Of a stretch of DNA of 64,000 nt, positions 18,185 through 56,134 are shown one piece after another (the first letter of the stretch is position 1; every line of letters begins with the position of its first letter). A model generated the notes under the pieces. The model did no database searches. It saw only the letters and a program-made list of their open reading frames with translations, and was not told the DNA's origin. Source of the DNA: an uncultured delta proteobacterium (lineage in GTDB: Bacteria > Myxococcota_A > Polyangia > Fen-1088); contig CAVYGB010000008.1 in the NCBI GenBank assembly GCA_963767925.1, positions 2,912,001 through 2,976,000 of the forward strand, given 5' to 3'. Both the position numbers and the translations under genes were made by a program.

Positions 18185-18344
18185 CGGCGACGCCCACCGG
18201 CCCGACCGCGCGCTATCAGGTGCAGATGCGTGGCGGGTTTCTCCTCTTGCGACGCGCAGATTACCACGGCTACGCCTCCTTCCGGGCCAGCTCTTCCGCC
18301 CGCTCAGGCCCGGGCGCAAGAGCGCCGAACGGTTCCCCCGCGAA

Positions 18345-18526
18345 CCGGAGACCCCTCTCCCCGCTGGCGCAGGGCGAGGGCGAACGATTTGCCAGGTTCC
18401 CCGATTCTCTCCCGAGGAGCATCTCGGTATCGGAGATCCACGGAGGAGTCCCAGATCTCTGCACCCCGCTTGTCCGTTCGCCCTCGCCCCGCGCCAGCGG
18501 GGAGAGGGGGGGTGAGGGGTCTCCGG
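18345..18526. repeat. inverted pair of REP-like palindromic units
   Basis: 18345-18386 CCGGAGACCCCTCTCCCCGCTGGCGCAGGGCGAGGGCGAACG matches the reverse complement of 18475-18526 apart from one substitution and a short insertion. Confidence 0.75.
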
Positions 18527-18585
18527 CCAAACTGTTCGGTACGCCAGGCCTCCGGCGGCCGGCGGTTCGATGATAGAGATGGCTC

Positions 18586-27227: not shown

Positions 27228-28410
27228 ATGGATCCGGAGGTCGTACGCCGCTTCCTCGAGAGCGTCGGGCAGAAGGCCGACGTCGACCTGTACCTGAAGC
27301 TGTTCCGGTCGCAGGAGAAGGAGAGCTTCGCCATCATCGCCGCCGACGCCCAGATGGTGCGCACGGCGCTCGACCCCTTCCACTTCGACCTGCGCATCCT
27401 GGCCGGCATCGGCCTGCACCCGGTGGTGCTGCTGGGCCTGTTCGACGCCAAGGACGCCGACCGCCAGGCCCAGCGGGTCTACGAGTGGCTGGTCGAGGAC
27501 CAGGTCCCGGCCCGCATCGTCGAGGCGGGGGCGGCCATGGCCCCCGCCGACGTCGACCTCATCCGCCACACCATCCGGGGCAACACCATCCCCATCGTCT
27601 CGCTGGAGGAGGCGCGCGAGGGCAAGACCGACTGCCCGCTTCAACCTGCTGTCGGCCCTGGCCACCGCCCTCGGCACCCGCAAGGTCATCTTCCTCTCGC
27701 CCAGCCCGGGGCTGGAGCGGGAGGGGGCTCCCCACATCTCGGGCGTGAACCTCAACGTCGACTACGAGCGCCTGCTGGGCGCCCGCGGCCAGCTCGCCCG
27801 CCGCCACTACACCCTGCTGCGCCAGGTGAAGGAGCTGCTCGACGAGGTCCCGCAGCGGATGAGCGTGGCGGTGGTCAACCCCCTGGCCCTGCTGCGCGAG
27901 CTGTTCACCGTGAGCGGGGCCGGCACCCTGATCCGCAAGGGATCGCGCATCGAGATCCACGCCGACCTCGCCCGCGTCGACCGGGGCCGCCTGCGCGTGC
28001 TGCTCGAGTCGGCCTTCGGGCGGCCGCTGCGCGAGGAGGCCTTCGACGGCGAGGTCGAGCGGGTCTACCTCGAGGAGAACTACCTCGGCGCCGCCCTGCT
28101 CTCCCCCTGCCCCATCGCCTCGTACCTGTCGAAGTTCGCGGTCGAGCGGGCCGCCCAGGGCGAAGGCATCGGCACCGACCTGTGGTCGATCCTGGTGCGC
28201 GACTACCCCTCCTTCTTCTGGCGCTCGCGCCCGGACAACCCCATCACCCCCTGGTACGCCAAGCAGTGCGACGGCCTCGTGCGCACGCCCGAGTGGCACG
28301 TGTTCTGGCGCGGCCTGCCCCCCAGCCGGGTCGAGGCGGCGGTGACCTTCGCCCTCGGCCAGCCCGCCGACTTCCTGCAGCCGCTACCCGCCGCCGCCCA
28401 GGCCGGCTGA
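27228..28410 (+). CDS. N-acetylglutamate synthase-like protein (AAK-like domain plus DUF619 NAT domain), frameshifted near 27633
   Basis: N-terminus resembles NAGS/K proteins; LLRELFTVSGAGTLIRKG, YLSKFAV...AQGEGIG, FFWRSRPDNPITPWY..QCDG; halves join by removing T27633. Confidence 0.8.
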
Positions 28411-29589
28411 CCCGGGCGGCGGCCGGTCCACCCGCGACAGCGGCAGCAGCAGCAGGGCGACGAGGGCCAGGACGGCGCCCGTCGAGAAAGCCGTTGGCGG
28501 GCCGAAGCGCTGGTAGAGCAGTCCGAACAGCGCGCTAGCTGGCAGCAGCGTGACGCCGAGGCAGAGGTGGTAGGCCCCGTACCCACGGGCCCGGGCGGCC
28601 GCCGGCACGAGATCCGCGACCAGGGCCTTCTGCGCGCCGCCGACGAGCGCGTGGTGAAAGGCGTAGACCGTGAAGACGACGATGAAGCCGTTCAGCCCGT
28701 CGGCCAGCGCGAACCCGGCGTAGACGAGGGCGTACAGCGCCCAGCCGGCGGCCAGCGCCCGCCGGCGGCCGATCCGGTCGGCCAGGCCGCCCCCCCAGGC
28801 GGTGGCGGCCGCCTTGATCCCGTTGTGAAAGGCCCAGAGCAGCGGGATGGCGGCGGCCGGCAACCCGAGCTGGTTCGCGCGCAGCAGGAGGAACGCGTCG
28901 GCCGATCCGCCGAGGGCGAACACCGTGACCGCCGCCAGGTAGCCGAGAAACGGCCGGGAAAACGGCGCCGGGGAGGGCGAAGCCGGGGGGACCGCTCCCC
29001 GAAGCGTGGTCAGCGGGGCCGGCGGTGGCTCGCGCACCACCACCCCCACGACGAGGCAGGCCAGCGTGGCGGGAACGGCGCTGGCCAGGAACACCGACGG
29101 CAGCGACGCGCCCAGGGCCAGCAGCCCGGCCGCCGCCAGCGGCCCCGCCACCGCCCCGGCGTGATCCATCGCCTCGTGCACCCCGAAGGCCCGTCCCCGC
29201 TGCTCGGGCGCGACGACGTCGGCGATGAGCGCGTCGCGGGGGCTGGAGCGCACCCCCTTGCCGAACCGATCGATGAGCCGGATGGCGAGCACCGCGCCCG
29301 CGCTGCTGGCCAGGGCCAGGAAAGGCCGGGCCGCCGAGGCGACGAGGTACCCTGCCACCACGAACGGCTTGCGCCGCCGCGTGCGGTCCGAGGCGTAACC
29401 CGCCGCCAGCTTCAGCAGGCTGGCCAGCATCTCGGCCGCCCCCTCGATGAGTCCGAGGACCGCCGGACCGGCCCCGATGGAGGTGGCCAGGAACAGCGGC
29501 AACAGCGGGTAGATCATGTCGCTGGCCGCGTCGTTGAGCAGGCTCGTGAGCCCCAGCGCATAAACGGTAGCGGGCAGTTTTCGCCGCAC
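28384..29589 (-). CDS. MFS transporter
   Basis: SLLNDAASDMIYPLLP, GYASDRTRRRKP, DRFGKGVRSSPRDALIAD, GGLADRIGRR; about 12 TM. Confidence 0.9.
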   Translation of the reverse strand: MRRKLPATVYALGLTSLLNDAASDMIYPLLPLFLATSIGAGPAVLGLIEGAAEMLASLLKLAAGYASDRTRRRKPFVVAGYLVASAARPFLALASSAGAVLAIRLIDRFGKGVRSSPRDALIADVVAPEQRGRAFGVHEAMDHAGAVAGPLAAAGLLALGASLPSVFLASAVPATLACLVVGVVVREPPPAPLTTLRGAVPPASPSPAPFSRPFLGYLAAVTVFALGGSADAFLLLRANQLGLPAAAIPLLWAFHNGIKAAATAWGGGLADRIGRRRALAAGWALYALVYAGFALADGLNGFIVVFTVYAFHHALVGGAQKALVADLVPAAARARGYGAYHLCLGVTLLPASALFGLLYQRFGPPTAFSTGAVLALVALLLLPLSRVDRPPPGSAGLGGGG

Positions 29590-29611
29590 GGGTGGCGGGT
29601 ATACTGCGCCC
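29590..29611. promoter_or_regulatory. 22-bp divergent intergenic region with a -10-like TATACT
   Basis: TATACT at 29600-29605, 6 nt before ATG 29612; the overlapping GTATAC palindrome gives TATACC on the minus strand. Confidence 0.5.
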
Positions 29612-30145
29612 ATGATGACGCTCGCCACCGTTTTACCGTTGCTGTCCGCCTCCCTCCTGGCAGCGGGCACCCCCGTCACCATCGACGGGCTCACCTCCAG
29701 CGTTCCGGCCTCCTGGAAGGAGCTGCCGGCTACCCAGATGCGCTTCAAGCAGTTCACCATCCCGAAGGTCGCCGCCGACAAGAACGACGCCGAGCTGGTG
29801 GTCTTCTTCTTCGGCCCGGGCGGCGGCGGCGACGTGCAGGCCAACCTGGCCCGCTGGAAGGGCATGTTCGTCGCGCCCGAGGGCAAGAACATCGACGAGG
29901 CCGCCAAGACCCAGACCTTCAAGGTCAACGGGGTCGACGTCACGACCCTCGACGTGCGCGGAACCTACAAATACAAGCCCTCGCCGATGGCCCCCAACGA
30001 GGAGCTGCGGCCCGGCCACCGCATGATCGCGGTCGTCTTCGCCAGCCCGCAGGGACCCTATTTCATGCGCTTCGTGGGCCCCGAGAAGACCGTCGACAAG
30101 AACCAGAAGGACTTCGACAAGTTCCTCAAGGGCTTCAAGAAGTAG
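29612..30145 (+). CDS. conserved exported hypothetical protein
   Basis: Signal peptide; MRFKQFTIP, FFGPGGGGDVQANLARWKGMF, GPYFMRFVGPEKTV. Confidence 0.8.
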   Translation: MMTLATVLPLLSASLLAAGTPVTIDGLTSSVPASWKELPATQMRFKQFTIPKVAADKNDAELVVFFFGPGGGGDVQANLARWKGMFVAPEGKNIDEAAKTQTFKVNGVDVTTLDVRGTYKYKPSPMAPNEELRPGHRMIAVVFASPQGPYFMRFVGPEKTVDKNQKDFDKFLKGFKK

Positions 30146-30161
30146 CCGGTCGAGGAGGGAG

Positions 30162-30204
30162 AGGAAGGGAACGAAGGCGCGCGCGACGCGGTCGTTCCCT
30201 TCCT
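30162..30204 (+). terminator. 13-bp perfect inverted repeat downstream of the gene (possible terminator/stabiliser)
   Basis: AGGAAGGGAACGA (30162-30174) / TCGTTCCCTTCCT (30192-30204); no poly-U tail. Confidence 0.4.
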
Positions 30205-30507
30205 GGGAGGCGGGGCTGTCGCTGCCGCCCCGATGTGGAAAAATGTGCAAGTCGGAGTGGGAGAGCCTCTCCGCCCCCGACGGGGCTCGACACGACCGGT
30301 TCCGGTGCTGAGCGCCTCTGCGGGCCGGCTCTACTGCGCCTCTGCGGGGCCGGCTCTGCTGGGTTCGTTTTACAGATCTTCTCTACAGATTTGGGGGGCC
30401 CACGCCGATGACGTCCTCGTGCCAGGCGCGCTCGCGCAACCCATGGTAGGGGCCGGCGTGCCCGGCGTTTTCATGTTAAGGTAACCTTCCCGAGTGAAGC
30501 TTTCACT

Positions 30508-32457
30508 GTGTGCGGCCTCGCTGGAATCCTGAGCCTTTCCGAGGAGCCCGTGGCTCCCGGCGAGCTCGAGTCGATGATCCGCCCGCTGCACCACCGCGGC
30601 CCCGATGATACGCAGGTGTTCAGGCAGGGCGGCGTGGGGCTGGCCCACGCCCGCCTGAGCATCATCGACATCGCCGGCGGCCGGCAGCCCGTCCACAACG
30701 AGGACGAGTCGATCTGGACCGTGTTCAACGGGGAGATCTTCAACTACCTCGAGCTCCGGCAGGAGCTTGAGGCGAAGGGCCACACCTTCTATACGCGCTC
30801 GGACACCGAGGTCATCGTGCACGCCTACGAGCAATATGGGCTCGACTTCGTGCAGCGCTTCAACGGCCAGTGGGCCATCGCCCTCTGGGACCGCAACCGC
30901 AAGCGCCTGGTCCTGGCCCGCGACCGGCTGGGGGTGCGACCCCTGTTTTACCGGCGCACGGGCGATCGCCTGCTCTTCTCCTCCGAGATCAAGGGCATCT
31001 TCGCCCTGCCGGGGGCCGAGCGGCGGATCGACCGGCGGGCGCTGGCCAGCGTGTTCCACTTCTGGTCGCCCCTCGAGCCGGCCAGCATGTTCGAGGGCGT
31101 CTCGCAGGTGCCCCCCGGACACATGCTCATCGCCGAGACCGGCGACAAGAAGGGCGACCTCCAGGTCCGCCGCTGCTGGGACTGGAGCTTCCCCTCCGAG
31201 GAGATCCCCTTCGACCGCCCGATCAAGGACTACGCCGACGAGCTGCGCAGCCTGATGATCGATGCCGTCCGCCTGCGCCTCCGCTCCGACGTGCCGGTGG
31301 GCGCCTATCTGAGCGGCGGGCTCGACTCCTCGATCATCACGACCCTCATCAAGAACTACACCGACACGCCCTTGCGCACCTTCTCGCTGGGGTTCGAGGA
31401 CGAGGAGTTCGACGAGAGCCCCTACCAGCAGGAGCTGATCCAGCACCTCGGCACCACCCACACCTCCATGACCTGCACCAAGCGGGACATCGGGGCGGCC
31501 TTTCCCCGCACCATCTGGCACACCGAGGCCTCCATCCTGCGCACGGCCCCCACCCCGCTGATGTTGCTGTCGCAGCGGGTGCACGAGGAGGGCTACAAGG
31601 TCGTCCTCACCGGCGAGGGGGCCGACGAGGTGTTCGGGGGCTACGACCTGTTCAAGGAGGCGCACATCCGGCGCTTCTGGGCGCGCCGGCCCGACTCGAA
31701 GTGGCGGGCCTCGCTGCTCTCGCGCCTGTACCCCTACCTCAAGAGCTCGCCGACCGCCTCGCCCCGCTACGCCGAGAGCTTCTTCAGCCAGGGGATGGAC
31801 CGCATCGCCGAGCCCTTCTTCGGGCACCTGCCGCGCTGGTCGACCACCAGCCGCACCTGGCGCTTCTTCAGCGGCGAGCAGCTCGCCGCCCTCGAGGGCT
31901 GGAACCCGGTCGAGCAATACCGGCAGCAGCTCCCGGCCGAGATCGGCCGCTGGCACCCCTTCAACCGCGACCAGTACAACGAGGGCCACACCCTGCTGTC
32001 GGGCTACCTGCTCTGCTCGCAGGGTGACCGGGTGGCGATGGCCAACTCGGTCGAGGGGCGCTTCCCCTTCCTCGACTACCGGGTGCTCGAGCTGGCCAGC
32101 CGCTTGCCGATCTCCTGCAAGATGCTGGGTCTCAAGGAGAAGCACCTGCTCAAGCGGGCCATGGCCGACCTGCTGCCCCGGTCGATCACGAAACGGACCA
32201 AGCAGCCTTACCGGGCCCCCGACAGCCAGAGCTTCTTTCACGAGCAGAAGCCGCTGCCCTACGTGGCCGACCTGCTCAGCGAGTCGCGCATCAAGACGGC
32301 CGGCTACTTCGATCCCATGGGCGTCACCCGCCTGATGGAGAAGTGCCGCAGCGGGCGGGCCATCGGCTTCGCCGACAACATGGCCTTCGTCGGCATCCTC
32401 TCCACGATGCTCCTCGACGAGATGTACATCCGACGGCTGGGACCCCTGCCGTCATAA
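30508..32457 (+). CDS. asnB: asparagine synthase (glutamine-hydrolysing) family amidotransferase
   Basis: N-terminal MCG Ntn nucleophile, HRGPD, RLSIID, FNGEIFN, YLSGGLDSS, VVLTGEGADE, SVEGRFPFLD. Confidence 0.92.
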   Translation: MCGLAGILSLSEEPVAPGELESMIRPLHHRGPDDTQVFRQGGVGLAHARLSIIDIAGGRQPVHNEDESIWTVFNGEIFNYLELRQELEAKGHTFYTRSDTEVIVHAYEQYGLDFVQRFNGQWAIALWDRNRKRLVLARDRLGVRPLFYRRTGDRLLFSSEIKGIFALPGAERRIDRRALASVFHFWSPLEPASMFEGVSQVPPGHMLIAETGDKKGDLQVRRCWDWSFPSEEIPFDRPIKDYADELRSLMIDAVRLRLRSDVPVGAYLSGGLDSSIITTLIKNYTDTPLRTFSLGFEDEEFDESPYQQELIQHLGTTHTSMTCTKRDIGAAFPRTIWHTEASILRTAPTPLMLLSQRVHEEGYKVVLTGEGADEVFGGYDLFKEAHIRRFWARRPDSKWRASLLSRLYPYLKSSPTASPRYAESFFSQGMDRIAEPFFGHLPRWSTTSRTWRFFSGEQLAALEGWNPVEQYRQQLPAEIGRWHPFNRDQYNEGHTLLSGYLLCSQGDRVAMANSVEGRFPFLDYRVLELASRLPISCKMLGLKEKHLLKRAMADLLPRSITKRTKQPYRAPDSQSFFHEQKPLPYVADLLSESRIKTAGYFDPMGVTRLMEKCRSGRAIGFADNMAFVGILSTMLLDEMYIRRLGPLPS

Positions 32458-32475
32458 CGCGACTAGGACGGACGC

Positions 32476-34029
32476 ATGCTGCTGCACCATCAGCTCAGGG
32501 CCACCATCGATCGTTTTGGCGAGAAGACCGCCGTGCGCGTGGGCGACGCGCGCTACAGCTACCGGGACATCGATCAGATGGCGACCCGGCTGGCCCTGGC
32601 GATGCAGAAGCGGGGCGTGCGCCGGCACGACCGGGTGGGGCTGTTCTTGCCCAACGGCATCGACATGGTGGTGGGCATCTTCGCCGCCCTCCGCTGCGGG
32701 GCGGCCTTCATGCCCATCAACCCTCAGACCAAGGCGGCCAAGCTCCGCTACATGCTCACCGACTCGACCCCCCGCTGCGTGGTGGTGCAGGGCGAGCTGT
32801 CGGCGACCTGGAGCGAGGCGACCGCGGGGCTCAGCGAGCCGAGCTCGATCCTGGTGGCGGGCGGGTCGCCCGCGGCGGCGCCCGACGGGCCGAAGGACGC
32901 CCGGGTCGAAAGCCTCTCCGCCGCCGTCGAGACCGCCGGGGGCGGCCTGACCGATCCGGGCCTCATCGACCTCGACCTGGCCTCGATCATCTACACCTCG
33001 GGCTCGACCGGCGATCCCAAGGGCGTGATGCTGAGCCACCGCAACATGGTCTCGGCCTGCAACTCGATCTCCGAGTACCTGGGGCTGCGCGAAGACGACG
33101 TCATCATGTGCGCCCTGCCGCTCTCCTTCGACTACGGCCTCTACCAGATCCTGATGGCGTTCAAGATGGGCGCCACCGTGTTCCTCGAGCCGTCCTTCTC
33201 CTTCCCGGTGAAGATCCTGGAGGTCATGCAGAAGGAGCGGATCACGGTGTTCCCGGGCGTCCCCACCATGTTCGCCATGTTGATGGGCCTCGACATCTTG
33301 ACCCGCTTCGACCTGTCGGCGGTGCGTATGTTCACCAACACCGCCGCCGCCCTCTCGGCCAAGCAGATCGAGGATCTGCGCAAGACCTTCCCCCAGGCCC
33401 GCCTGTTTTCCATGTACGGCCTCACCGAGTGCAAGCGGGTCACCTACCTGCCGCCCGACCAGCTCGACAAGCGGCCGACCAGCGTGGGCCGGGGCATGCC
33501 GAACGAGGAGGTCTACCTGATCGACGAGGACGGCCGCCGCCTGCCCAACGGCAGCATCGGCCAGCTCGTGGTGCGGGGGAGCAACGTCATGGTCGGCTAC
33601 TGGAACAAGCCCGAGGAGACCGAGCGCCGGATCAAGCCCGGCCAGTACCCGGGCGAGCGGGTCCTGCACACCGGCGACCTGTTCCGCACCGACGAGGAGG
33701 GCTACCTCTTCTTCGTGGGGCGCACCGACGACATCATCAAGAGCCGGGGCGAGAAGGTCAGCCCGCGCGAGGTGGAGAACGCCATCCACGATCTGGTCGG
33801 CGTGTCCCAGGTGGCCGTGATCGGGGTGCCCGATCCGATGCTGGGCGAGGCCATCAAGGCCTACATCGTGCTCAAGGACGGCGTGACCTACAGCGAGCGG
33901 GAGATCGTCAAACACTGCCTGGCCCGCCTCGAGAACTTCATGGCCCCCAAACACGTGGAGTTCGTCACCACGCTTCCCATGACCAACACCGGCAAGGTAA
34001 GCAAGAGCGAGCTCCGCAAACGCAACTGA
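32476..34029 (+). CDS. AMP-forming acyl ligase (ANL superfamily)
   Basis: IIYTSGSTGDPKGV, LPLSFDYG, MYGLTEC, TGDL, GRTDDIIKSRGEKVSPREVE, terminal GK motif. Confidence 0.92.
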   Translation: MLLHHQLRATIDRFGEKTAVRVGDARYSYRDIDQMATRLALAMQKRGVRRHDRVGLFLPNGIDMVVGIFAALRCGAAFMPINPQTKAAKLRYMLTDSTPRCVVVQGELSATWSEATAGLSEPSSILVAGGSPAAAPDGPKDARVESLSAAVETAGGGLTDPGLIDLDLASIIYTSGSTGDPKGVMLSHRNMVSACNSISEYLGLREDDVIMCALPLSFDYGLYQILMAFKMGATVFLEPSFSFPVKILEVMQKERITVFPGVPTMFAMLMGLDILTRFDLSAVRMFTNTAAALSAKQIEDLRKTFPQARLFSMYGLTECKRVTYLPPDQLDKRPTSVGRGMPNEEVYLIDEDGRRLPNGSIGQLVVRGSNVMVGYWNKPEETERRIKPGQYPGERVLHTGDLFRTDEEGYLFFVGRTDDIIKSRGEKVSPREVENAIHDLVGVSQVAVIGVPDPMLGEAIKAYIVLKDGVTYSEREIVKHCLARLENFMAPKHVEFVTTLPMTNTGKVSKSELRKRN

Positions 34030-34051
34030 CTACCAGGGAAAGCAAGCGCCG

Positions 34052-34303
34052 ATGGACATCAAAGCCAAGGTCAGACAGTACATCTCCGAGAACATCCTCA
34101 TGACCGGAGCCGCTGCGGACCTCACCGATGACGCCTCGCTGTTGCAACGGTCGGTCCTCGACTCGACCGGAGTCCTCGAGCTGGTGACCTTCCTGGAGGA
34201 CACCTTCCACATCAAGGTGGCCGACGAGGAGATGTTGCCCGACAACCTCGACTCGCTGAACAAGATCGCCACCTACGTGCAGAGCAAGCTCCCCAAGGCT
34301 TGA
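34052..34303 (+). CDS. acyl carrier protein
   Basis: 83 aa, acidic; VLDSTGVLELV with the phosphopantetheine Ser. Confidence 0.9.
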   Translation: MDIKAKVRQYISENILMTGAAADLTDDASLLQRSVLDSTGVLELVTFLEDTFHIKVADEEMLPDNLDSLNKIATYVQSKLPKA

Positions 34304-34323
34304 AGGCCAGAGAGGTCGACCAA

Positions 34324-35325
34324 ATGAGCAGCGAGATCACGACCAAGCTCCGAGGTGTCCTCGATCTCGACCCGGCGGCCGAGACCGAGTTCATCTGCAC
34401 GCGCATGCGGGAGATCGTGAGCCAGCAGCTCAAGCGCCGGGGGGTGGTCGTCGCCGTCTCGGGCGGCGTCGACAGCTCGGTCTGCCTGGCCCTGGCCGCC
34501 AGGGCCTTCGGCCCCAGCAAGGTGTTCTCCCTGCTGCTGCCCGAGCGGGAGTCCTCCTCGGCCAGCGTCGAGCTCGGGCGCAAGATCTCCGAGCAGGTGG
34601 GGGTCCCCTGGTCGATCGAGGACATCACCCCCGCCCTCGAGGGGCTGGGCTGCTACCGGCAGCGCGACGAGGCCATCCGCAAGGTGTTCCCCGAATACGG
34701 CGAAGGCTGGAAGAACAAGATCGTCATCGCCGGCGGGGCCCAGGGCGGCGTGAACTTCTTCAAGCTCGTCGTGCGCTCCCCCGCCGGGGAGATGCGCGAG
34801 CAGCGGGTGCCCCACGGGCCCTATCTCCAGATCGTGGCCGCCCAGAACTACAAGCAGCGGGCCCGCAAGACCATCGAGTTCTTCCACGCCGACCGCCTCA
34901 ACTACGCCGTGGTCGGCACCCCCAACCGGCTGGAGTACGACCAGGGCTTCTTCGTGAAGAACGGGGACGGCTCGGCCGACATCAAGCCGATCGCCCACCT
35001 CTACAAGACCCAGGTCTACGCCCTGGCCCGGCACCTCGATCTGCCGGCCGAGATCTGCAGCGCCCGGCCCACCACCGACACGTACAGCCTGCAGCAGGGA
35101 CAGGACGAGTTCTACTTCGCCCTGCCCTACGAGAAGATGGACGTCGCGCTGTGGGCCTACAACCACGGGGTGTCGGCCGAGGCCCTGGCCGGAGCCCTGG
35201 GGGTGAGCGCCGAGCAGGCGTCCTTCGTGTACGGCGACATCCAGGCCAAGCGCGACGCGACCCGCCCCCTGCACTCCCGGCCCATCCTCATGCGTCCCGT
35301 GGAGGAGGTCCGGCCCCTCGGCTGA
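34324..35325 (+). CDS. nadE: NH3-dependent NAD synthetase-like ATP pyrophosphatase (NadE paralog)
   Basis: PP-loop SGGVDSS, NYKQRAR, VVGTPNRLE..QGFFVKNGDG..DIKPIAHLYKTQVY; no glutaminase domain. Confidence 0.82.
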   Translation: MSSEITTKLRGVLDLDPAAETEFICTRMREIVSQQLKRRGVVVAVSGGVDSSVCLALAARAFGPSKVFSLLLPERESSSASVELGRKISEQVGVPWSIEDITPALEGLGCYRQRDEAIRKVFPEYGEGWKNKIVIAGGAQGGVNFFKLVVRSPAGEMREQRVPHGPYLQIVAAQNYKQRARKTIEFFHADRLNYAVVGTPNRLEYDQGFFVKNGDGSADIKPIAHLYKTQVYALARHLDLPAEICSARPTTDTYSLQQGQDEFYFALPYEKMDVALWAYNHGVSAEALAGALGVSAEQASFVYGDIQAKRDATRPLHSRPILMRPVEEVRPLG

Positions 35326-35346
35326 CCGGCTGTTAAGATCGGGACC

Positions 35347-36132
35347 ATGAAGATCTACGAGTTTCTGGCCCGCTCGCAGCATCCGCTGGCCCGGGAGGCG
35401 CGGTCCCTGTACCGCCGCATGGAGCAGTTCTCCCTGCCCGCGCCCGCCCCCCTGGTCAAGCCGGCGATGTGGGCCTTCCTGGGCCTGCAGTCGGCCTACC
35501 ACTTCGGGGCCCGGATCATCTTCGCCGAGCCCCTCATGAAGGGCTACTGCAAGAGCTACGGCCGGAACTTCCACACCGGCTCCCACGTCCACTGGATCCA
35601 GGGCAAGGGCGACCTCATCGTCGGCGACGACGTGCTCATCGACGGCAAGTGCAACATCGCCTTTGCCACGACGTTGCACGATCGTCCAACCCTGCGCATC
35701 GGCGACCGGACCGTGATCGGCCACGGCTCGTCGATGGTGGTGGCCAGGGCGATCACCATCGGCGCCGATTGCCTCATCGCGGGCGGGACCTGGATGTTCG
35801 ACTCACCGGGGCACCCCTCGGATCCGACCGACCGCAAGGCCCACAAGAAGCCGGGGCCCGAGGACATCAAGCCGATCGTGATCGAGGACAACTGCTGGAT
35901 CGGGAGCGACGCCGTCCTGGCCCCCGGCGTGCGGGTCGGCGAGGGCAGCATCGTGGCGGCCAAGTCGGTGGTCCTGACCGACGTGGCCCCCTACACGGTG
36001 GTGATGGGCAATCCGGCCCGCCGCATCCTGCAGCTCAAGCCACCTGCCGGCACCGCGTCGACGGCGGCTCCGGCGGCCGTCACCCCGCCTGCCGCCGCCT
36101 CCGGCGCCGAGCCGTTGAAGGTCGCGACCTGA
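35347..36132 (+). CDS. hexapeptide-repeat (left-handed beta-helix) acyltransferase
   Basis: IGDRTVIG, IGADCLIAGG, DSPGHP, IEDNCWIGSDAVLAPGVRVGEGSIVAAKSVV, VVMGNPAR. Confidence 0.88.
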   Translation: MKIYEFLARSQHPLAREARSLYRRMEQFSLPAPAPLVKPAMWAFLGLQSAYHFGARIIFAEPLMKGYCKSYGRNFHTGSHVHWIQGKGDLIVGDDVLIDGKCNIAFATTLHDRPTLRIGDRTVIGHGSSMVVARAITIGADCLIAGGTWMFDSPGHPSDPTDRKAHKKPGPEDIKPIVIEDNCWIGSDAVLAPGVRVGEGSIVAAKSVVLTDVAPYTVVMGNPARRILQLKPPAGTASTAAPAAVTPPAAASGAEPLKVAT

Positions 36133-36190
36133 TACGCGTCCAAGACGGGTAGCAGTTGCCCGGCTGGCTTTTCCCGGGCAGCGTAGGGCC

Positions 36191-37486
36191 ATGTCGACAA
36201 TGCGCATATCCACGCTCGCTTCGCTGACCTGCCTGCCCGCCTTGCTGGGCGCAGCGCCCGCCCTGGGCGCGGAGTACTTCGTGGCCCCCAGCGGCAACGA
36301 CGGGGCCAGCGGCAAGGCCGGAGAGCCCTGGAAGACGCTGCAGAAGGCCGCCGACACCGTGCAGACCGGCGACCGGGTGGTCGTCGAAGACGGCACCTAC
36401 CGCGGCTTCACCGTCGACGAGCGGGAGTTCGGGCCCGGGCGGGTCACCTTCGTGGCCCGCAACAAGTGGAAGGCCCGCGTCACCTCCCCCTCCCTCAAAT
36501 ACGGGAAGAACGACGGCATCGCCATCGTCTCCTCGAGCTACGTCACCATCGACGGCTTCGAGGTGACGGGCGCCTCCCGGGCCGGCATCGTGGTGCGCAG
36601 CTTCGCCCCCGAGCCGGCCGGCAAGGACACCCGGGACAACATCATCCGCAACTGCTGGAGCCACGACAACGGGGCCTGGGGCAAGGGCGAGGGGGCCCAC
36701 GACGGCATCTTCACCGGCTGGGCCCTCAACGTGCTCATCGAAAACAACCTCGTCGAGCGCAACGGCGAACACGGGATCTACGTGTCGAACTCCGCCGACA
36801 ACCCCATCGTCCGGAACAACATCGTGCGGGGCAACTGGGCCCAGGGGATCCAGATCAACGCCGACGGGGACCTCGACGGCGACGGCATCATCACCAACTG
36901 GGAGATCTCCGGCAACATCATCACCGAGAACTCCATCCGGGGCGGGTCGACCGCGGTCAACCTCGACGGGGCGGTGCGGGGGCGGGCCTTCAACAACCTG
37001 ATCTACGGCAACGGCAAGGGCGGCTTCGTGCTCTGGCAGGGCAACGGCAACGCCTCCTCCAACGAGAACGTGTTTTACAACAACACAGTCTACAACCCGA
37101 AGGGGACCAAGGCCGCCTTCATCTTTTACACGGGCGCCTCCAACAACGTCGTCTTCAACAACATCCTCTACTCCCGCTCGGGCGGCATCGAGGTCGACGA
37201 GGAGGAGGCGGGCAAGGGCAACCGCCACGACTTCAACCTGGTGACCTCGGTGCTGGGCTCGAGCAAGCTGGGCCCCAACGAGGCCTCCCCCCCGGTGAGC
37301 GAGCTGTTCATCGACGCCGACAAGGGCAACCTGCGCCCCCGCCCCGGCGCCCCTTCCCTCGGCAAGGGCGCCGCCACCTTCGCCGGTCGCAAGGTGGTCC
37401 CCACCGACCTGGAGGGGCGCGCCCGACCCCAGACCAGCGCCCCCGACATCGGCTGCTACCAGAGCGCCGCGACCGCCCAGCGTTGA
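36191..37486 (+). CDS. secreted right-handed parallel beta-helix protein (DUF1565/pectin-lyase-like)
   Basis: Signal peptide; YFVAPSGND...PWKTLQKAA...GDRVVVEDGTY; Asn-rich repeats, HGIYVS; terminal PDIGCY. Confidence 0.85.
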   Translation: MSTMRISTLASLTCLPALLGAAPALGAEYFVAPSGNDGASGKAGEPWKTLQKAADTVQTGDRVVVEDGTYRGFTVDEREFGPGRVTFVARNKWKARVTSPSLKYGKNDGIAIVSSSYVTIDGFEVTGASRAGIVVRSFAPEPAGKDTRDNIIRNCWSHDNGAWGKGEGAHDGIFTGWALNVLIENNLVERNGEHGIYVSNSADNPIVRNNIVRGNWAQGIQINADGDLDGDGIITNWEISGNIITENSIRGGSTAVNLDGAVRGRAFNNLIYGNGKGGFVLWQGNGNASSNENVFYNNTVYNPKGTKAAFIFYTGASNNVVFNNILYSRSGGIEVDEEEAGKGNRHDFNLVTSVLGSSKLGPNEASPPVSELFIDADKGNLRPRPGAPSLGKGAATFAGRKVVPTDLEGRARPQTSAPDIGCYQSAATAQR

Positions 37487-37654
37487 CCGTTGCCCGCACC
37501 CGTTGTCCCGGGCGCAACGATCGGTCCGGGTCGCTGTCGGTGACGCTGCCCTCCACACGCCGGGTCGGGCCCGAGATGGGCGACTTCAAGAGGGTAATCG
37601 GGCGCCGGTCGGTTCCGGGGAGACGTGCACACTTCGTGCAGTCTCCCTCGGTTC

Positions 37655-39280
37655 ATGAGGGTGACGGCGACGCAGCGGGGGAGCGAAGTCCGGGCGCGGA
37701 GCAGCAGGCCGGGCTGGATCGCCGGGATGATCGCCCTGCTGGTGAGTGGGGCCGCCTGCCTGCCGCCGCCGGACGGCGACGGCGACAGCGAAGGCGACCG
37801 CGACGGCGAGGAGCCCTACCCGGTGGAGCCGGCCGACGTGGAGACCCAGGCCCGCGCCCTGCAGGGCAACAACTCGGGCGGGTACAACCTCGGCGGCGCC
37901 AACCTCGGCGGCGCGAACCTCGGGGGCGCCAACCTCGGCGGTGCCAACCTGGGCGGTTCCAACCTCGGGGGCAGCAACCTCGGCGGCAACAACCTGGCCG
38001 GCACCAACCTCGGGGGCAATAACCTCGGCGGCGTCAACCTCGGCGGCAGCAACCTCGGCGGCGTCAACCTCGGCGGCAGCAACCTCGGTGGCGTCAACCT
38101 CGGCGGTTCCAACCTCGGCGGATCCAACCTGGGCGGCAGCAACGTCGCCGGCACCAACCTCGGGGGCAACAACCTCGGTGGCAGCAACCTCGGCGGCAGC
38201 AACCTCGGCGGGTCGAACACCGGCTTCAACATCCGGAGCCGGGCCGCCGGCGTGAACGGCATGTTGTACAGTGGGGAGGACCTCGCCTCGCCAAAGACCG
38301 CCCAGTGCATCGTGATGGGCATCGGCTCGACCGCCTTCGCCAAGCTCCTCGGCCAGCAGAGCGCCAACGCCAAGATCTCGGTCGCCCTCGGCAAGCTCCC
38401 CTGGGGCTTCGCCAGCAGCAAGGGCGGGCCGGTGAACCTCGGCGCCTGGGAGGCCACCGTCTGGGGCGACAAGACCTTCTGCGTGTTCGTCCTCGCCGTC
38501 CCCCCGGGTGTGAGCTGGTCCGGGGTGGCCGGCTTCATCAAGTCGGTCTTCCGCTGGAACGCGCCCCCCAGCCAGACCATGGAGGTGAGCGGCATCGAGG
38601 CCAGCCGGCCCCACGACGCCAGCGTCAACACCGCCATCACCTCCTACACCGGCATGATGAACACCGCCGCCCTCTTCCGCTCGGGCAAGATCTCGGCCAA
38701 GAACTACCTCGCCGGCGCGCTCGGCTTCATCACCGCCACCACCAACAACGAGTCGGTGATGGTCGACTTCTCCTCCTGGGTGCTGGGCACCGGCACCAAG
38801 GCCATCATCCTCGGCAACGTGCAGGCCAGCAGCCCGCCCACCTACGTGGAGAGCGTGTTCTACGTGGTGGAGAACAGCGACGGGACGGTGGCGGTGAAGG
38901 TCTACTTCGGCGGGGTGACTTCACCGCCGGGCATCACCGTCTCGAACTTCGTGCTCGAGGCGGCCTACAAGAACTGGAAGAAGGGCCTGGTCGCCAAGCC
39001 GGTGCCCCGCCGCTGCGCCGGCGCCCTGCTGCTCAACTTCAACTACGGCGAGCCGATCGCCCCGGGCAAGTGCGACAGCGGCCTGAGCTGGCAGACCGCG
39101 GGCGCCTCCTTCGCCGGCAAGCGCTGGAACACCGAAGCCGGGACCACCGCCCCGATGAACACGTACATGGAGATGCCCAACGGCAGCAGCGAATACTTCA
39201 AGCGCGGCCCCACCTCCACCACGATGAAGAAGGTCCTCTCCGAGACCTACATCCACCTCTGGGAGAAGAGCTTCGACTGA
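37655..39280 (+). CDS. exported protein (possible lipoprotein) with 22 NLGGx pentapeptide repeats and an unknown C-terminal domain
   Basis: Hydrophobic IALLVSGAAC, acidic linker, repeat block, then about 350 aa with Cys/Trp; start 37655 or 37727. Confidence 0.8.
   Translation: MRVTATQRGSEVRARSSRPGWIAGMIALLVSGAACLPPPDGDGDSEGDRDGEEPYPVEPADVETQARALQGNNSGGYNLGGANLGGANLGGANLGGANLGGSNLGGSNLGGNNLAGTNLGGNNLGGVNLGGSNLGGVNLGGSNLGGVNLGGSNLGGSNLGGSNVAGTNLGGNNLGGSNLGGSNLGGSNTGFNIRSRAAGVNGMLYSGEDLASPKTAQCIVMGIGSTAFAKLLGQQSANAKISVALGKLPWGFASSKGGPVNLGAWEATVWGDKTFCVFVLAVPPGVSWSGVAGFIKSVFRWNAPPSQTMEVSGIEASRPHDASVNTAITSYTGMMNTAALFRSGKISAKNYLAGALGFITATTNNESVMVDFSSWVLGTGTKAIILGNVQASSPPTYVESVFYVVENSDGTVAVKVYFGGVTSPPGITVSNFVLEAAYKNWKKGLVAKPVPRRCAGALLLNFNYGEPIAPGKCDSGLSWQTAGASFAGKRWNTEAGTTAPMNTYMEMPNGSSEYFKRGPTSTTMKKVLSETYIHLWEKSFD
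37886..38215 (+). repeat. in-frame 15-bp tandem repeat, 22 units (consensus AACCTCGGCGGCNNN)
   Basis: 22 x 15 bp encoding N-(L/V)-(G/A)-G-(A/S/N/V/T); synonymous variation between units. Confidence 0.95.
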
Positions 39281-39286
39281 TCGGCG

Positions 39287-41017
39287 TCAGTGGATCTCGG
39301 GCTCGCTGATCGGGGCGGTGCCCTCCAGGAAGTCGAAGTCGCAGCCCCGGTCGGCCTGGGTGATGTGGCGGGTGAACATGGCCCCGTAGCCGCGCTGGTA
39401 GCGGGGGGGCGGCGGGGTCCAGGCGGCCTTGCGGCGGGCCAGCTCGGCGGGGTCGACCCGCAGGTCGATGCGCCGGTTGGGGACGTCGAGCTCGATGAGA
39501 TCACCCTCGCGCAGCAGGGCCAGCGGGCCGCCCACGTAGGACTCGGGGGCCACGTGCAGCACGCAGGTGCCGTAGCTGGTGCCGCTCATGCGGGCGTCCG
39601 ACAGGCGGACCATGTCCCGCACCCCCTGCTTCAGCAGCTTCTTGGGGATCGGCAACATGCCCCACTCGGGGAACCCGGGACCACCCAGGGGCCCGGCGTT
39701 GCGCAGGACGAGGACCGAGTCGGGGGTGACCGCCAGGTTCTCGTCGTCGATCCGGCGCTCGAGATCGTTGTAGTCGTCGAAGACGACCGCCGGCCCGGTG
39801 TGGGTCAGCAGGCGGGCCTCGCAGGCGCTGGTCTTGATGACCGCCCCGCTGGGGGCCAGGCTCCCGCGCAGCACCGCCAGCCCCCCCTCCTGGGAGAGGG
39901 CCTCGCTCACCGAGCGGATGACGTCCTTGTTGTAGATCCGGGCCCCGGCGATGTCCTCGCCGAGGGTGCGCCCGCTGATGGTCCGCTCCTGCAGGTGCAG
40001 CAGGTGCTTGAGCTCGCCGAGCAGCGCGGGCAGCCCGCCCGCGTAAAAGAAGTCCTCCATGAGGTACTTGCCCGAGGGGCGCAGGTTGCAGATCAGCGGC
40101 GTCCGCCGGGAAAAGGCGTCGTAGTCGTCGATGCTGAGCGGCACGCCCGCCCGCCCGGCCATCGCGATGAGGTGGACGAGGGCGTTGGTCGAGCCGCCCA
40201 CCGCCATCAGCACCGTGATGGCGTTCTCGAACGACTGGCGGGTCAAGATGTCGCGGGGCTTGAGATCCTCCCACACCATCTCGACCGCCCGCCTGCCCGC
40301 CGCCGTGCCCATGCGCCCGTGGTTGGAGTCGACCGCCGGGATCGACGAGGCGCCGGTGAGCGACAGCCCCAGCGACTCGACGATGGCGGTCATGGTGGAG
40401 GCGGTCCCCATGACCATGCAGGTGCCGGCCGAGCGGGCGATGCCCCCCTCGATCTCCTTCCAGTCCTGCTGGTTGATGGTGCCGGCGCGCAGCTCGGCCC
40501 AGTATTTCCAGACGTCGCTGCCGCTGCCCAGCACCTCGCCCCGCCAGTTGCCCCGCAACATGGGCCCGGCCGGGAAGAAGACGGTCGGCAGGTTGACGCT
40601 CGTCGCCCCCATCACCAGCGCGGGGGTGGTCTTGTCACAGCCCCCCATGATGACCGCCCCGTCGATGGGGTAGGACCGGAGCTGCTCCTCCGTCTCCATC
40701 GCCAGGAGGTTGCGGTAGAGCATGGTGGAGGGCTTCTGGAAGTTCTCCGACAGGGAGATGGCCGGCAGCTCGATGGGGAAGCCCCCCGCCTGCCAGATGC
40801 CCCGCTTTATCTCCTCGGCTCGCGTGCGAAAGTGCTGGTGGCAGGGGTTGATGTCGTTCCAGGTGTTGACGATGGCGATGACCGGCTTGCCGGCATAGTC
40901 CGCGCGGTCGTAGCCCATCTGGGCCACCCGCGAGCGGTGGCCGAAGGCTCGGAGGTTCTCCACCCCGAACCAGCGGTGACTGCGCAGCTCCTCGGGACGC
41001 TTGCGTGGGGGGGCCAT
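39287..41017 (-). CDS. araD: IlvD/Edd family sugar-acid dehydratase (L-arabinonate dehydratase-like)
   Basis: NPCHQH, MLYRNLLAM, GGCDKTTP, GTCMVMGTASTM, GGSTNA, SDARMSGTSYG. Confidence 0.85.
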   Translation of the reverse strand: MAPPRKRPEELRSHRWFGVENLRAFGHRSRVAQMGYDRADYAGKPVIAIVNTWNDINPCHQHFRTRAEEIKRGIWQAGGFPIELPAISLSENFQKPSTMLYRNLLAMETEEQLRSYPIDGAVIMGGCDKTTPALVMGATSVNLPTVFFPAGPMLRGNWRGEVLGSGSDVWKYWAELRAGTINQQDWKEIEGGIARSAGTCMVMGTASTMTAIVESLGLSLTGASSIPAVDSNHGRMGTAAGRRAVEMVWEDLKPRDILTRQSFENAITVLMAVGGSTNALVHLIAMAGRAGVPLSIDDYDAFSRRTPLICNLRPSGKYLMEDFFYAGGLPALLGELKHLLHLQERTISGRTLGEDIAGARIYNKDVIRSVSEALSQEGGLAVLRGSLAPSGAVIKTSACEARLLTHTGPAVVFDDYNDLERRIDDENLAVTPDSVLVLRNAGPLGGPGFPEWGMLPIPKKLLKQGVRDMVRLSDARMSGTSYGTCVLHVAPESYVGGPLALLREGDLIELDVPNRRIDLRVDPAELARRKAAWTPPPPRYQRGYGAMFTRHITQADRGCDFDFLEGTAPISEPEIH

Positions 41018-41029
41018 GGACGTCCTCGC

Positions 41030-41959
41030 CTATCCCGGGGCCAGCGCCTTGTCGGCGGCCAGCAGATCCTGGGCCGCCTTGGCCACCTCGGCGTGTCGTT
41101 CGGGGTCGAGGTTCGACAGCAGCGGCAACATCGGGCCGGTGTCGGCGATGCCGGCCAGGCGAACCGCCTCGTGCAGCACCCGGATGGGCGAGAGGGCGTC
41201 GCGCCGGTCCTCGAGGGGGATGTACTTTTCCCGGAGGCGGGCGGCGGTGTCCCAGTCCTTACGCTTGCAGGCCTCGAGGATGCGGGTCGAGCCCCGGGGC
41301 GCCACGCAGACCGATCCCGAGGTGAACCCCTGCAGGCCGTAGTCGCGCAGGTGGGTGATCACGGGCCGCTCCCCGATGCCGCTCACGATGTAACGGCGGT
41401 CGACGATCTCCACCAGCCGGCGCAGGAAGACGTCCTCCAGGGGGTCGATGCGCACGATGGCGTATTTGATGGCCGCCACCAGGCCGTCGTCGACCAGGCC
41501 CTTGACCAGCTCGGGCGTGAGGTAGCCCTCGGCCTTGATGTAGACGATGACCGGCTTGCCGAGCGCCTCGGCGAAGCGGCGCAGGCCGGTGGCGGCCCCC
41601 GCGGGGGTCATCGGGAAGGTCATCGGCAGCACCATGGCGGTGGGGAACGACCGGCTCTTCAGCGCCGCCGCCTGATCGATCAGCTTGCCGTAGTCGGGGC
41701 CCACCGAGGGGATGAGCCAGGTCTTGGCCCCCGCCAGCTCCCCGAGCTGGTCGAGCACCTGCCCGTATTCGTAGAGCCCGATGTTGTAGAAGTTGGCGTT
41801 GCCCCCGTAGAGCAGGGTCGTGACGCCCCCCGCCTCGATATGCCGGATCAGCGCTGCGTTCCCGGCGCGGCTGAAGCTCAGGTCGGCATTGCGGGCCAGC
41901 GGAGGGACCGCGAGCACCGAGGACGACAGATCGGCGAACGTGACAGCATCGATCTTCAT
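41030..41959 (-). CDS. dihydrodipicolinate synthase family protein (probable keto-deoxy acid dehydratase/aldolase)
   Basis: AVPPLAR, LLYGGNANFY, VIVYIK, Schiff-base Lys AIKYA; co-oriented with the dehydratase. Confidence 0.8.
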   Translation of the reverse strand: MKIDAVTFADLSSSVLAVPPLARNADLSFSRAGNAALIRHIEAGGVTTLLYGGNANFYNIGLYEYGQVLDQLGELAGAKTWLIPSVGPDYGKLIDQAAALKSRSFPTAMVLPMTFPMTPAGAATGLRRFAEALGKPVIVYIKAEGYLTPELVKGLVDDGLVAAIKYAIVRIDPLEDVFLRRLVEIVDRRYIVSGIGERPVITHLRDYGLQGFTSGSVCVAPRGSTRILEACKRKDWDTAARLREKYIPLEDRRDALSPIRVLHEAVRLAGIADTGPMLPLLSNLDPERHAEVAKAAQDLLAADKALAPG

Positions 41960-42063
41960 GGCGTTTCGCTTGTACTACGGAGCGCAGAGCTGTCACAAGC
42001 CGCGCCCTCCCGTGAGGCGGCGGTCCGGCGGGACGTTATGGTATAGAGTCCCCCGACTTTCCC

Positions 42064-42804
42064 ATGGGCCTCCTCGATCTCTTCTCGAAAGACAAACGCG
42101 ACGAGCGCGCCCGAACCAAGAACGTCGAGCGGGCCGTCAACAAACACGCCCAGTCCATCGACCGGATGAAGGCGCTGGAAGCGCTGGCCAACGACGGCTC
42201 CACGGAAGCGTTTTATGGCCTGTTGCGTCGCTTCGGCATGCACTACCACAAGACCATCGAGGACGAGCAGGAGAAGGAGTGGGCCTTCGAGACCCTCGTC
42301 TCCAAGGGCAAGGCCGTCCTGCCCGCCGTCCGCCGGTACCTGGTGAGCGCCGACTCGATCTCCTGGCCCCTGCGCCTCCTGCAGAAGGTGGCCGACCGCC
42401 AGGAAGAGCTGGTGGCCCTCGAGGAGGTCCTGGCCCGGCACGAGCCCGGCTACGAGCGCGACCCCACCAAGAAGATCCAGCTCCTCAACTACCTCGGCGG
42501 CTTCAAGCACGAGAAGGCCACCCCCCTCACCGTCCCTTACCTGAAGGACATGGACGAGGGGGTGCGCTTCACCGCGGTCGAGGCGCTGCTGCGCCAGAAG
42601 CGGGAGGAGCTCACCCGGGAGCCGCTGCTCGAGCTGTTCGTCTCCAACGAGGAGGAGAGCTTGCGCATCCGCCTCCGCATCGCCGAGGGGTTCGCCGAGC
42701 TGGGCTGGCTGGTCCACGGCCACCGCGGCGCCCTCGAGAAGAAGCTGCCCGAGGCCTACCACCTCGATCGCGAAGGCCACATCAAGCGCAAGCCCCAGGG
42801 TTGA
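42064..42804 (+). CDS. HEAT-repeat protein
   Basis: Helical repeats; YLKDMDEGVRFTAVEALL, EESLRIRLRIAEGF. Confidence 0.78.
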   Translation: MGLLDLFSKDKRDERARTKNVERAVNKHAQSIDRMKALEALANDGSTEAFYGLLRRFGMHYHKTIEDEQEKEWAFETLVSKGKAVLPAVRRYLVSADSISWPLRLLQKVADRQEELVALEEVLARHEPGYERDPTKKIQLLNYLGGFKHEKATPLTVPYLKDMDEGVRFTAVEALLRQKREELTREPLLELFVSNEEESLRIRLRIAEGFAELGWLVHGHRGALEKKLPEAYHLDREGHIKRKPQG

Positions 42805-42825
42805 GCGGCGGGCCAGTCGGCAAGA

Positions 42826-42866
42826 TCAGTCAGTCACTCAGTCAGTCAGTCACCAAGGTCAGTCAG
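42826..42866 (+). repeat. (TCAG/TCAC)n tetranucleotide repeat
   Basis: TCAG TCAG TCAC TCAG TCAG TCAG TCAC caagg TCAG TCAG between the HEAT gene and carB. Confidence 0.85.
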
Positions 42867-42884
42867 CGAGGCTAAGACGTCTTC

Positions 42885-55986: not shown

Positions 55987-56134
55987 GCCTCTCCCTTTTG
56001 CAACCCTCGGACCCATTCTCGATGGGGCCGGTAAAGGGGTGCCCACATGTCTCCGGACGGCCTTCGACGCAATCTCTGCGGAGTGTCCGGGACCGCGCGT
56101 CCTTTACGCGCTACTATTCTGGCCTGCGGGGATC

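Follow-up and report, generated by a model that had tools for sequence, protein, structure and literature searches.

An operon reading asnB, SMb20651 (acyl carrier protein, ACP), SMb20650 (ligase) and nadE was reportedly described on pSymB of Sinorhizobium meliloti by Ramos-Vega et al. in 2009. The present analysis concerns a related locus in a stretch of 64,000 nt from an uncultured delta proteobacterium (assembly GCA_963767925.1, contig CAVYGB010000008.1, positions 2,912,001 to 2,976,000), hereafter the window, which has a G+C content of 71% and derives from a 9.3 Mb genome in a 13-contig assembly with a marker-gene completeness of 83.8%. Five co-oriented genes on the + strand span window positions 30508–36132 and encode, in order, an AsnB-like glutamine amidotransferase, an adenylate-forming ligase, a small carrier protein, a NadE-like protein and a hexapeptide acyltransferase. 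These genes are a further example of the asnB/ACP/ligase/nadE cassette, which was first noticed in S. meliloti, and have a different terminal transferase. Judging from sequence and gene neighbourhood, we give a probability of roughly 0.55 to the reading that it encodes a carrier-protein-centred acyl-amide pathway, the product of which is passed on by an acyltransferase.

Experimental information on the S. meliloti genes concerns the ligase and the carrier protein. As summarized in PMC7232532, smb20650 and the ACP gene smb20651 are cotranscribed, expression of smb20650 led to acylated SMb20651 in Escherichia coli, SMb20650 acylates holo-SMb20651 in vivo, and SMb20650 was unable to replace FadD for growth on oleate. 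A reading of the window made earlier from its letters alone (the sequence-only reading) had stated that the ligase acylates the ACP in this system, in agreement with these results. The function of SMb20651 'need[s] further investigation' in the words of a 2017 paper (PMC5686131). Our literature search found nothing on the product of the cassette, and no publication linking nadE, an acyl carrier protein, asnB and exopolysaccharide (EPS).

In annotated loci of Mesorhizobium and Sinorhizobium medicae, asnB is followed by genes for an acyl carrier protein and an adenylate-forming enzyme and then by nadE. These are the same four genes as in the window, co-oriented and adjacent, and the NadE is likewise of the NF002048 type. 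Compared with the S. medicae and Mesorhizobium copies, the window proteins displayed identities of 47–48% (AsnB), 49–51% (ligase), 43–51% (carrier protein, against rhizobial genes annotated as acyl carrier protein) and 56% (NadE), and the rhizobial ligase shares the pocket type of the window ligase, Asp '235' plus Arg '330'. The S. meliloti-type operon named by the sequence-only reading therefore does exist in rhizobia, with a NadE 56% identical to that of the window, but its gene order differs: acp precedes the ligase gene there, whereas the ligase gene precedes the carrier protein gene in the window. The window also contains a hexapeptide acyltransferase gene after nadE that is missing from the rhizobial loci, and its cassette is nearer to Burkholderiales versions (60–68% identity) than to the rhizobial operon.

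The conserved gene unit and its neighbours in other genomes

The GC3 (G+C at third codon positions) of each of the five frames was 0.87–0.96 and the successive intergenic gaps were 18, 22, −4 and 21 nt. Domain scans and GC3 bore out the coordinates and identities that had been given for five closely spaced co-oriented genes; the domain assignments were strong for all but the carrier protein. A scan of 40 open reading frames (ORFs) of the window against Pfam revealed no ketosynthase or condensation domain, as the sequence-only reading had also stated, and no glycosyltransferase, Wzx/Wzy, polysaccharide-export, exosortase or EPS genes.

Relatives of the NadE-like protein were present in at least 598 stretches, counting one genome per species. 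We examined the 80 best matches (58–68% identity) among them, which came from Beta- and Gammaproteobacteria, Myxococcota, Verrucomicrobiota, Gemmatimonadota, Krumholzibacteriota, Fibrobacterota and others; 43 of these loci had at least 6 kb of sequence on both sides. Partners were sought by tblastn with the window proteins (at least 40% coverage) within 6 kb of the NadE-like gene. The ligase was found in 72/80 loci (40/43 of those fully flanked), the carrier protein in 69/80 (39/43) and AsnB in 53/80 (36/43), with all three present together in 51/80 loci (36/43). The hexapeptide transferase, in contrast, was near the NadE-like gene in only 6/80 loci (3/43). Since most of the 80 loci have these partners next to their NadE-like gene, the arrangement seen in the window is far beyond what chance would produce, and by these counts the conserved unit is one of four genes (AsnB, ligase, carrier protein and NadE-like), not five. 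Carriage on plasmids was also evident, with 212 plasmid records containing a NadE-like relative, 83 of them from Sinorhizobium.

Gene fusions linked the same partners. There were 39 longer NadE-like relatives, with domain order checked in 13. A ligase::NadE-like fusion accounted for 11 clusters, several others were AsnB::NadE-like fusions (one of which, P0022, has 16 member sequences), P0006 (11 member sequences) is a NadE-like::hexapeptide fusion, and P0028 joins a NadE-like domain to the condensation domain of a nonribosomal peptide synthetase (NRPS). Many of the other long relatives were metagenomic singletons and perhaps represent gene-calling artefacts.

The neighbours of the cassette in other genomes included polysaccharide deacetylases (18 loci) and ketoacyl-ACP synthase III (6 loci), as well as FemAB/Acetyltransf_6 proteins, Wzy, glycosyltransferases, and chain-length and export genes. 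Such surroundings are typical of PEP-CTERM/XrtA polysaccharide loci, and many gamma- and betaproteobacterial cassettes sit among PEP-CTERM-type EPS genes. The XrtA/PEP-CTERM models TIGR03108 and TIGR03098 were the best-scoring specific NCBIfam models for the window AsnB (429 bits) and ligase (447 bits), yet both proteins fell below the cut-offs of these models (817 and 592), and the window itself contained no exosortase or EPS gene among the scanned ORFs. A 352-aa protein was encoded directly after nadE in 16 loci (17 ORFs). Its matches to GNAT families were sub-threshold (Acetyltransf_9 in 6/14 members, best E-value 6.6e-4) and its profile matched aminoglycoside acetyltransferases at E 0.002; a firm GNAT assignment was not adopted and we refer to it as GNAT-like.

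The enzymes of the cassette and their candidate substrate

The NadE-like protein (341 aa, 34300–35325, +) is of the PRK00876/NF002048 type. It lacks a glutaminase domain, as had been read from the sequence alone, and matched PF02540 at 140.7 bits (cut-off 21) in two stretches around an insertion of approximately 65 residues relative to solved NadEs, which forms three strands at residues 138–169 in a model of the protein with a predicted local distance difference test (pLDDT) score of 87.9. The best structural matches were 2E18 and 3FIU, and the nearest solved relatives by sequence were short-type NadEs (19–24% identity) and the Francisella nicotinamide mononucleotide (NMN) synthetase. The short NadEs of Pyrococcus horikoshii (2E18) and Helicobacter pylori (1XNG) and the NMN synthetase (3FIU) share the fold (Foldseek probability 1.00, target-normalised TM-score 0.84–0.88), PP-loop and core motifs of the NadE-like protein, but differ from it in their low identity, the insertion, its separate clade, its status as an extra copy and its linkage to a carrier protein. 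The 3FIU enzyme presumably shows that substrate shifts occur within the NadE family. Across the NadE-like family the mean column identity was 65%, with SGGxDS, GTPNRxEYDQGFFVKxGDG and QGQDEFY invariant, and Cys118 (34651–34653), part of a Gly-Cys-Tyr motif where the insertion begins, was invariant in 34/34 members, stand-alone members included.

Phylogeny and distribution separated this protein from the housekeeping enzyme. In a tree of 11 canonical NadE rows (domains from the same genomes) and 25 NadE-like rows hand-picked out of 100, the two groups were split with a Shimodaira–Hasegawa-like approximate likelihood ratio test (SH-aLRT) support of 100 and a branch of 1.31 + 3.01. A full-length canonical NadE was also present in 10/10 other genomes, five carrying the cassette and five a stand-alone NadE-like gene, and the NadE-like family occurred in just 23/301 sampled genomes of the window's phylum (22 above the cut-off). 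By its own clade, the second copy elsewhere and its patchy distribution in the phylum, the NadE-like protein is not the housekeeping NAD synthetase, and the sequence-only reading had anticipated as much. Among 14 well-known control genomes NF002048 was above its cut-off only in Methanosarcina acetivorans, and the family therefore reaches Archaea.

The sequence-only reading had also called for a second nadE in the same genome. A glutamine-type nadE is indeed present (contig C10, 1789482–1791127, −; profile positions 3–542 of 546), but it lies in three frames, so that it qualifies as an intact second copy only if the shifts are assembly errors. Both one-base shifts fall in runs of C and the assembly is 83.8% complete, for which reasons they are probably sequencing or assembly errors; the same shifts, together with that completeness for an assembly of 13 contigs, suggest homopolymer indel errors throughout.

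Not all NadE-like genes have the cassette partners. Seven of the 80 loci contained no ligase, carrier protein or AsnB; three of the seven were short contigs, whilst four had at least 5.7 kb of sequence on both sides. A stand-alone subclade (L043, L044, L056, L080 and L083; SH-aLRT 97) comprised Krumholzibacteriia, Fibrobacteraceae and an unclassified metagenome-assembled genome, and displayed a different insertion sequence; a canonical NadE was also found in those genomes. The sole common neighbour of the stand-alone genes was an acetate-kinase-like gene approximately 1–2 kb downstream, which gave no clue to function.

The AsnB-like protein (649 aa, 30508–32457, +) comprised an N-terminal Cys2 glutaminase domain, starting Met-Cys-Gly, and a PP-loop synthetase domain (GATase_7 and Asn_synthase, the latter at 316.9 bits). 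It scored above the cut-off of TIGR01536 (500 versus 267 bits) and below those of the XrtA amidotransferase model TIGR03108 and of the E. coli-type asnB model NF006949 (327 versus 499). Among solved chains the hydroxyamidotransferase 7YLZ was nearest (215 bits) and E. coli AsnB 1CT9 came next (187 bits). Of at least five AsnB-family loci in the genome, three scored above the cut-off, and the cassette gene does not appear to be a single-copy AsnB for asparagine supply.

The ligase (517 aa, 32476–34029, +), presumed to load the carrier protein, matched PF00501 (307.6 bits) and AMP-binding_C. In addition to TIGR03098, the exosortase-A ligase model mentioned above, it scored below the cut-off of the amino-acid adenylation model TIGR01733 (295 versus 317.4). 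Its nearest solved chains were NRPS adenylation domains, the stand-alone enzyme 3WVN, beta-aminoacyl-ACP synthetases and the malonyl-CoA synthetase MatB, relatives that load amino acids or malonate. Ten putative specificity-pocket positions were placed on the ligases by means of motif landmarks; so placed, the pocket of the window ligase reads DYYPTTMRVK. For comparison, 54 of 61 clustered ligase ORFs from the related loci were kept by length, a few of which are second ligases in their locus, giving 55 sequences with that of the window. At these putative positions, Arg '330' was conserved in 54/55 sequences, and Met '322' and Lys517 in 55/55. The near-invariant pocket Arg agrees with a substrate in which a carboxylate stays free, and so with the (di)carboxylate suggested by the sequence-only reading. 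Position '235', likewise putative, divided the ligases into two types: type I, with Asp, comprised 21/55 sequences including those of the window and rhizobia, and type II, with Ser, Ala or Gly, comprised the remaining 34. The Asp is presumably the FD-motif residue that binds the substrate amine in amino-acid adenylation domains, and our best guess for the substrate of the window's Asp-type ligase is an acidic amino acid.

An NPPY (HemK/PrmC-like) N-methyltransferase gene was found within 4 kb of the cassette in 11/15 type I loci versus 0/34 type II loci, counts that come from related loci and hence do not constitute a statistical test. The association fits an amine- or amide-bearing product. 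No cassette-type NPPY methyltransferase was found near the window cassette, and the genome as a whole contained only one distant match (34–40% identity), on contig C2. Separately, we observed that the GNAT-like protein mostly accompanied type II ligases (9/34, versus 1/15 for type I).

The carrier protein (83 aa, 34052–34303, +) matched PF00550 at 20.7 bits, just below the cut-off of 20.8, and its phosphopantetheine motif (Asp37-Ser38) was invariant in 20/20 aligned homologues. The OlsHI ornithine-lipid carrier protein family (NF052616) was considered and rejected (54.7 versus a cut-off of 130). The start of the NadE-like gene overlaps the stop of the carrier protein gene by 4 nt. In structure predictions, a NadE-like dimer with the carrier protein scored 0.40, against 0.01 for the best of three controls; in the calibration, the score mark was reached by 116/157 solved complexes and 2/215 mismatched pairs; at 0.60 or less, just 18/157 solved complexes reached it, as did both passing mismatches. 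The prediction differed from the calibration set-up in using its own alignments and 2 + 1 chains. Runs shared at least 59% of contacts and the pLDDT of the partner was at least 79. These predictions hint that the NadE-like dimer may contact the carrier protein.

The hexapeptide acyltransferase (261 aa, 35347–36132, +) is a predicted left-handed beta-helix protein (PF00132, 47.3 bits) with a distinctive N-terminal region of approximately 85 residues. Over 255 residues, which include the unusual N-terminal region, it shares 42% identity with the C-terminal half of the P0006 fusion.

Origin and surroundings of the window copy

The window NadE-like protein grouped in a clade of eight with Burkholderiales and other betaproteobacterial rows (SH-aLRT 97), apart from 20 rows from its own phylum. 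The window AsnB and ligase were 60–65% identical to betaproteobacterial loci versus 46–52% to own-phylum loci, and the gene order matched betaproteobacterial loci, whereas own-phylum cassettes usually read nadE, asnB, ligase and acp. G+C was 0.66–0.70 across 30–44 kb, compared with 0.72–0.74 just upstream and 0.71–0.75 downstream. Because of the grouping with Burkholderiales and the stretch of lower G+C, the simplest reading is that the window copy was probably acquired horizontally from a donor of betaproteobacterial type. The stretch of low G+C (30000–44000) holds the cassette, the beta-helix and pentapeptide genes described below, ilvD-like and dihydrodipicolinate synthase-like genes on the − strand, a HEAT-repeat gene and the start of carB. 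The genome also encodes Ser/Thr kinases, an OmpA-type protein and MopE-type repeats.

A consensus scan placed a terminator-like hairpin with a T-rich tail directly 3' of the hexapeptide gene (36146–36162, +), one of 7 sites in the scan versus 4.4 expected, which is a weak indication of a possible end of the five-gene operon. Downstream lies a gene for a secreted right-handed beta-helix protein (431 aa, 36191–37486, +; Beta_helix, 76 bits) with a signal-peptide-like N-terminus. Its membership in the cassette is uncertain; weak relatives (24–26% identity) occurred within 10 kb of the cassette in 4/80 loci. It is followed by a gene for a pentapeptide-repeat protein (551 aa, 37625–39280, +), the last co-oriented gene before the convergent ilvD. 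None of 102 loci had a relative of this protein next to the cassette, and nothing linked it to the cassette. Upstream of asnB (29900–30600), three Rfam matches at chance level (E 0.59–0.98, far below gathering scores) gave no riboswitch or leader, and no sigma-70-like promoter was found in 29800–39500.

The cassette is preceded by a divergent major facilitator superfamily (MFS) transporter gene (28384–29943, −). The 5' part of the MFS ORF is overlapped by a 177-aa ORF on the other strand (29612–30145, +; GC3 0.92) that has no Pfam match, and probably one of these ORFs has a miscalled start. Two further pairs of long ORFs with high GC3 overlap in different frames: a Proton_antipo_M ORF with a PTS_EIIA/HTH ORF (15516–18583, −), and an ORF with no Pfam match with a Peptidase_MA/TPR ORF (55790–60849, +). 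Both pairs may be further frame-shifted genes.

Proposed pathway, alternative explanations and related systems

In the acyl-amide pathway that we propose, the ligase would adenylate a small acid, for which an acidic amino acid or short dicarboxylate is the likeliest candidate, and load it as a thioester on the carrier protein with one or more carboxylates left free. Two ATP-dependent PP-loop enzymes would then turn the free carboxylate or carboxylates into carboxamide: the AsnB-like enzyme, using glutamine, and the NadE-like enzyme, using ammonia, whose ancestral role in NAD synthesis would have given way to a substrate held on the carrier. An acyltransferase specific to each locus would finally hand the acyl group to an acceptor. 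Here this would be the hexapeptide transferase; elsewhere a GNAT/FemAB-like protein inside polysaccharide loci may take the role.

Several observations weigh against this pathway. The cassette keeps two amidating enzymes where one amidation would need only one; possibly they act on two carboxylates or in two successive steps on one carbon, or divide free and tethered substrates between them. The experiments found in the literature concern carrier-protein loading only (PMC7232532). The amine-binding Asp is confined to the 21 type I ligases, and the substrate may therefore differ between ligase subtypes. The sequence-only reading had counted the acyltransferase in the cassette and proposed a glycan or other surface acceptor, and neither part was supported in that form: despite the P0006 fusion, a hexapeptide transferase was adjacent in only 6 of the 80 loci and 7/20 own-phylum loci (within 6 kb), it most resembles sugar O-acetyltransferases that use acetyl-CoA, and the scanned ORFs of the window include no glycan-synthesis genes, so that a glycan acceptor is suggested only by the polysaccharide loci of other genomes. 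Lastly, the canonical NadE motifs SGGxDS, FFVKxGDG and QxDE are retained in the catalytic core of the NadE-like protein, and the protein scored 479 bits against a cut-off of 313 for NF002048, which NCBIfam names NAD(+) synthase; amidation of nicotinic acid adenine dinucleotide is therefore compatible with its sequence. If the frame shifts in the genome's glutamine-type nadE are real, the NadE-like protein could be required for NAD synthesis, and its partnerless relatives in seven loci are a further point on that side.

A more specific version of the proposed pathway is possible, though we hold it only tentatively. NF002048 would be a family of PP-loop amidoligases acting on a carrier-tethered acid, which together with AsnB would yield a doubly nitrogen-modified acyl group, either a diamide or an amide converted further to a nitrile or amidine, for installation by locus-specific acyltransferases on exopolysaccharides or other acceptors across hundreds of species. 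We know of no NadE-family enzyme for which a carrier-protein-tethered acid is the substrate.

Alternatively, the cassette may produce a free small amide metabolite, such as a signal, solute or antibiotic building block, that is released and exported rather than attached to the surface. The rhizobial operon stands alone, with no acyltransferase or glycan genes within 10 kb, and the window offers no glycosyltransferase, Wzx/Wzy or export gene among its scanned ORFs but does have the MFS transporter gene divergently upstream; moreover, the nearest solved relatives of the ligase are natural-product loading enzymes and P0028 fuses a NadE-like domain to an NRPS condensation domain. We nevertheless consider a free product unlikely, given that most non-rhizobial cassettes lie inside polysaccharide loci that also hold deacetylases and GNAT/FemAB-like transferases, that the window showed no thioesterase next to its cassette, and that the operon is followed by a secreted beta-helix protein of a kind common in glycan metabolism.

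The chemistry of the NadE-like enzyme could also differ. QueC-type PP-loop enzymes take an amide to a nitrile or amidine, and LarE-type enzymes perform sulfur chemistry via a cysteine. The NadE-like protein might accordingly perform a second ATP-dependent step on the same carbon or, with Cys118 as the candidate residue, LarE-type sulfur chemistry. One amidation does not need both AsnB and the NadE-like protein, although the two were kept together in 36 of the 43 fully flanked loci; Cys118 is invariant at the edge of the insertion; and the PP-loop region weakly matches QueC (20.4 bits) and LarE (32 bits). These matches cover the shared PP-loop only, however, whilst the remainder of the protein keeps NadE-specific motifs and all of its structural neighbours are NadE or NMN synthetases, which leaves such chemistry rather improbable.

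That the NadE-like protein is a true ammonia-dependent NAD synthetase isozyme merely travelling with other genes, as its NCBIfam name and score, its catalytic motifs, the three-frame nadE and the stand-alone subclade would allow, is very improbable in view of synteny with ligase, carrier protein and AsnB kept across phyla, domain fusions to those partner enzymes, its occurrence as an extra copy in every other genome examined and in few genomes of the phylum, its long branch from canonical NadE, and the position of the nadE shifts in C runs of an incomplete assembly, which points to sequencing errors.

In sum, annotation pipelines call the key enzyme of this cassette NAD synthase in at least 598 species-level genomes. 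If the acid that the NadE-like enzyme amidates is indeed carrier-bound, it is wrongly counted as NadE in metabolic reconstructions and hundreds of genome annotations, and an acyl-amide group, probably a common decoration of polysaccharides in many environmental and plant-associated bacteria, would still await chemical description. The window copy further indicates that the module can move between phyla and that its terminal transferase can be swapped, being of the hexapeptide type here (a type that also occurs fused to the NadE-like domain), with GNAT-like or methyltransferase-containing versions elsewhere.

Among characterized systems, two display a comparable logic. In D-alanylation by DltA and DltC, and in the addition of glycine to lipid A by AlmE, AlmF and AlmG, a ligase charges a dedicated carrier from which the residue passes to an envelope polymer. 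These systems resemble the cassette in their stand-alone adenylating ligase and small dedicated carrier, and the window carrier protein gave a weak match to the DltC model (27.7 bits versus a cut-off of 68). The cassette differs in having two amidating enzymes in between and a hexapeptide transferase of soluble type in place of a membrane transferase; no DltB/DltD- or AlmG-type transferase was present among the 40 scanned ORFs. The amidation step has its own parallel in tetracycline biosynthesis, in which AsnB homologues of the OxyD type form malonamyl by amidating a malonyl unit that is bound to a carrier or to CoA. Likened by description only, OxyD and the role proposed for the window AsnB both involve an AsnB-family amidotransferase acting on the free carboxylate of a thioester-bound dicarboxylate, with the difference that the OxyD pathway includes a polyketide synthase and the window cassette does not.

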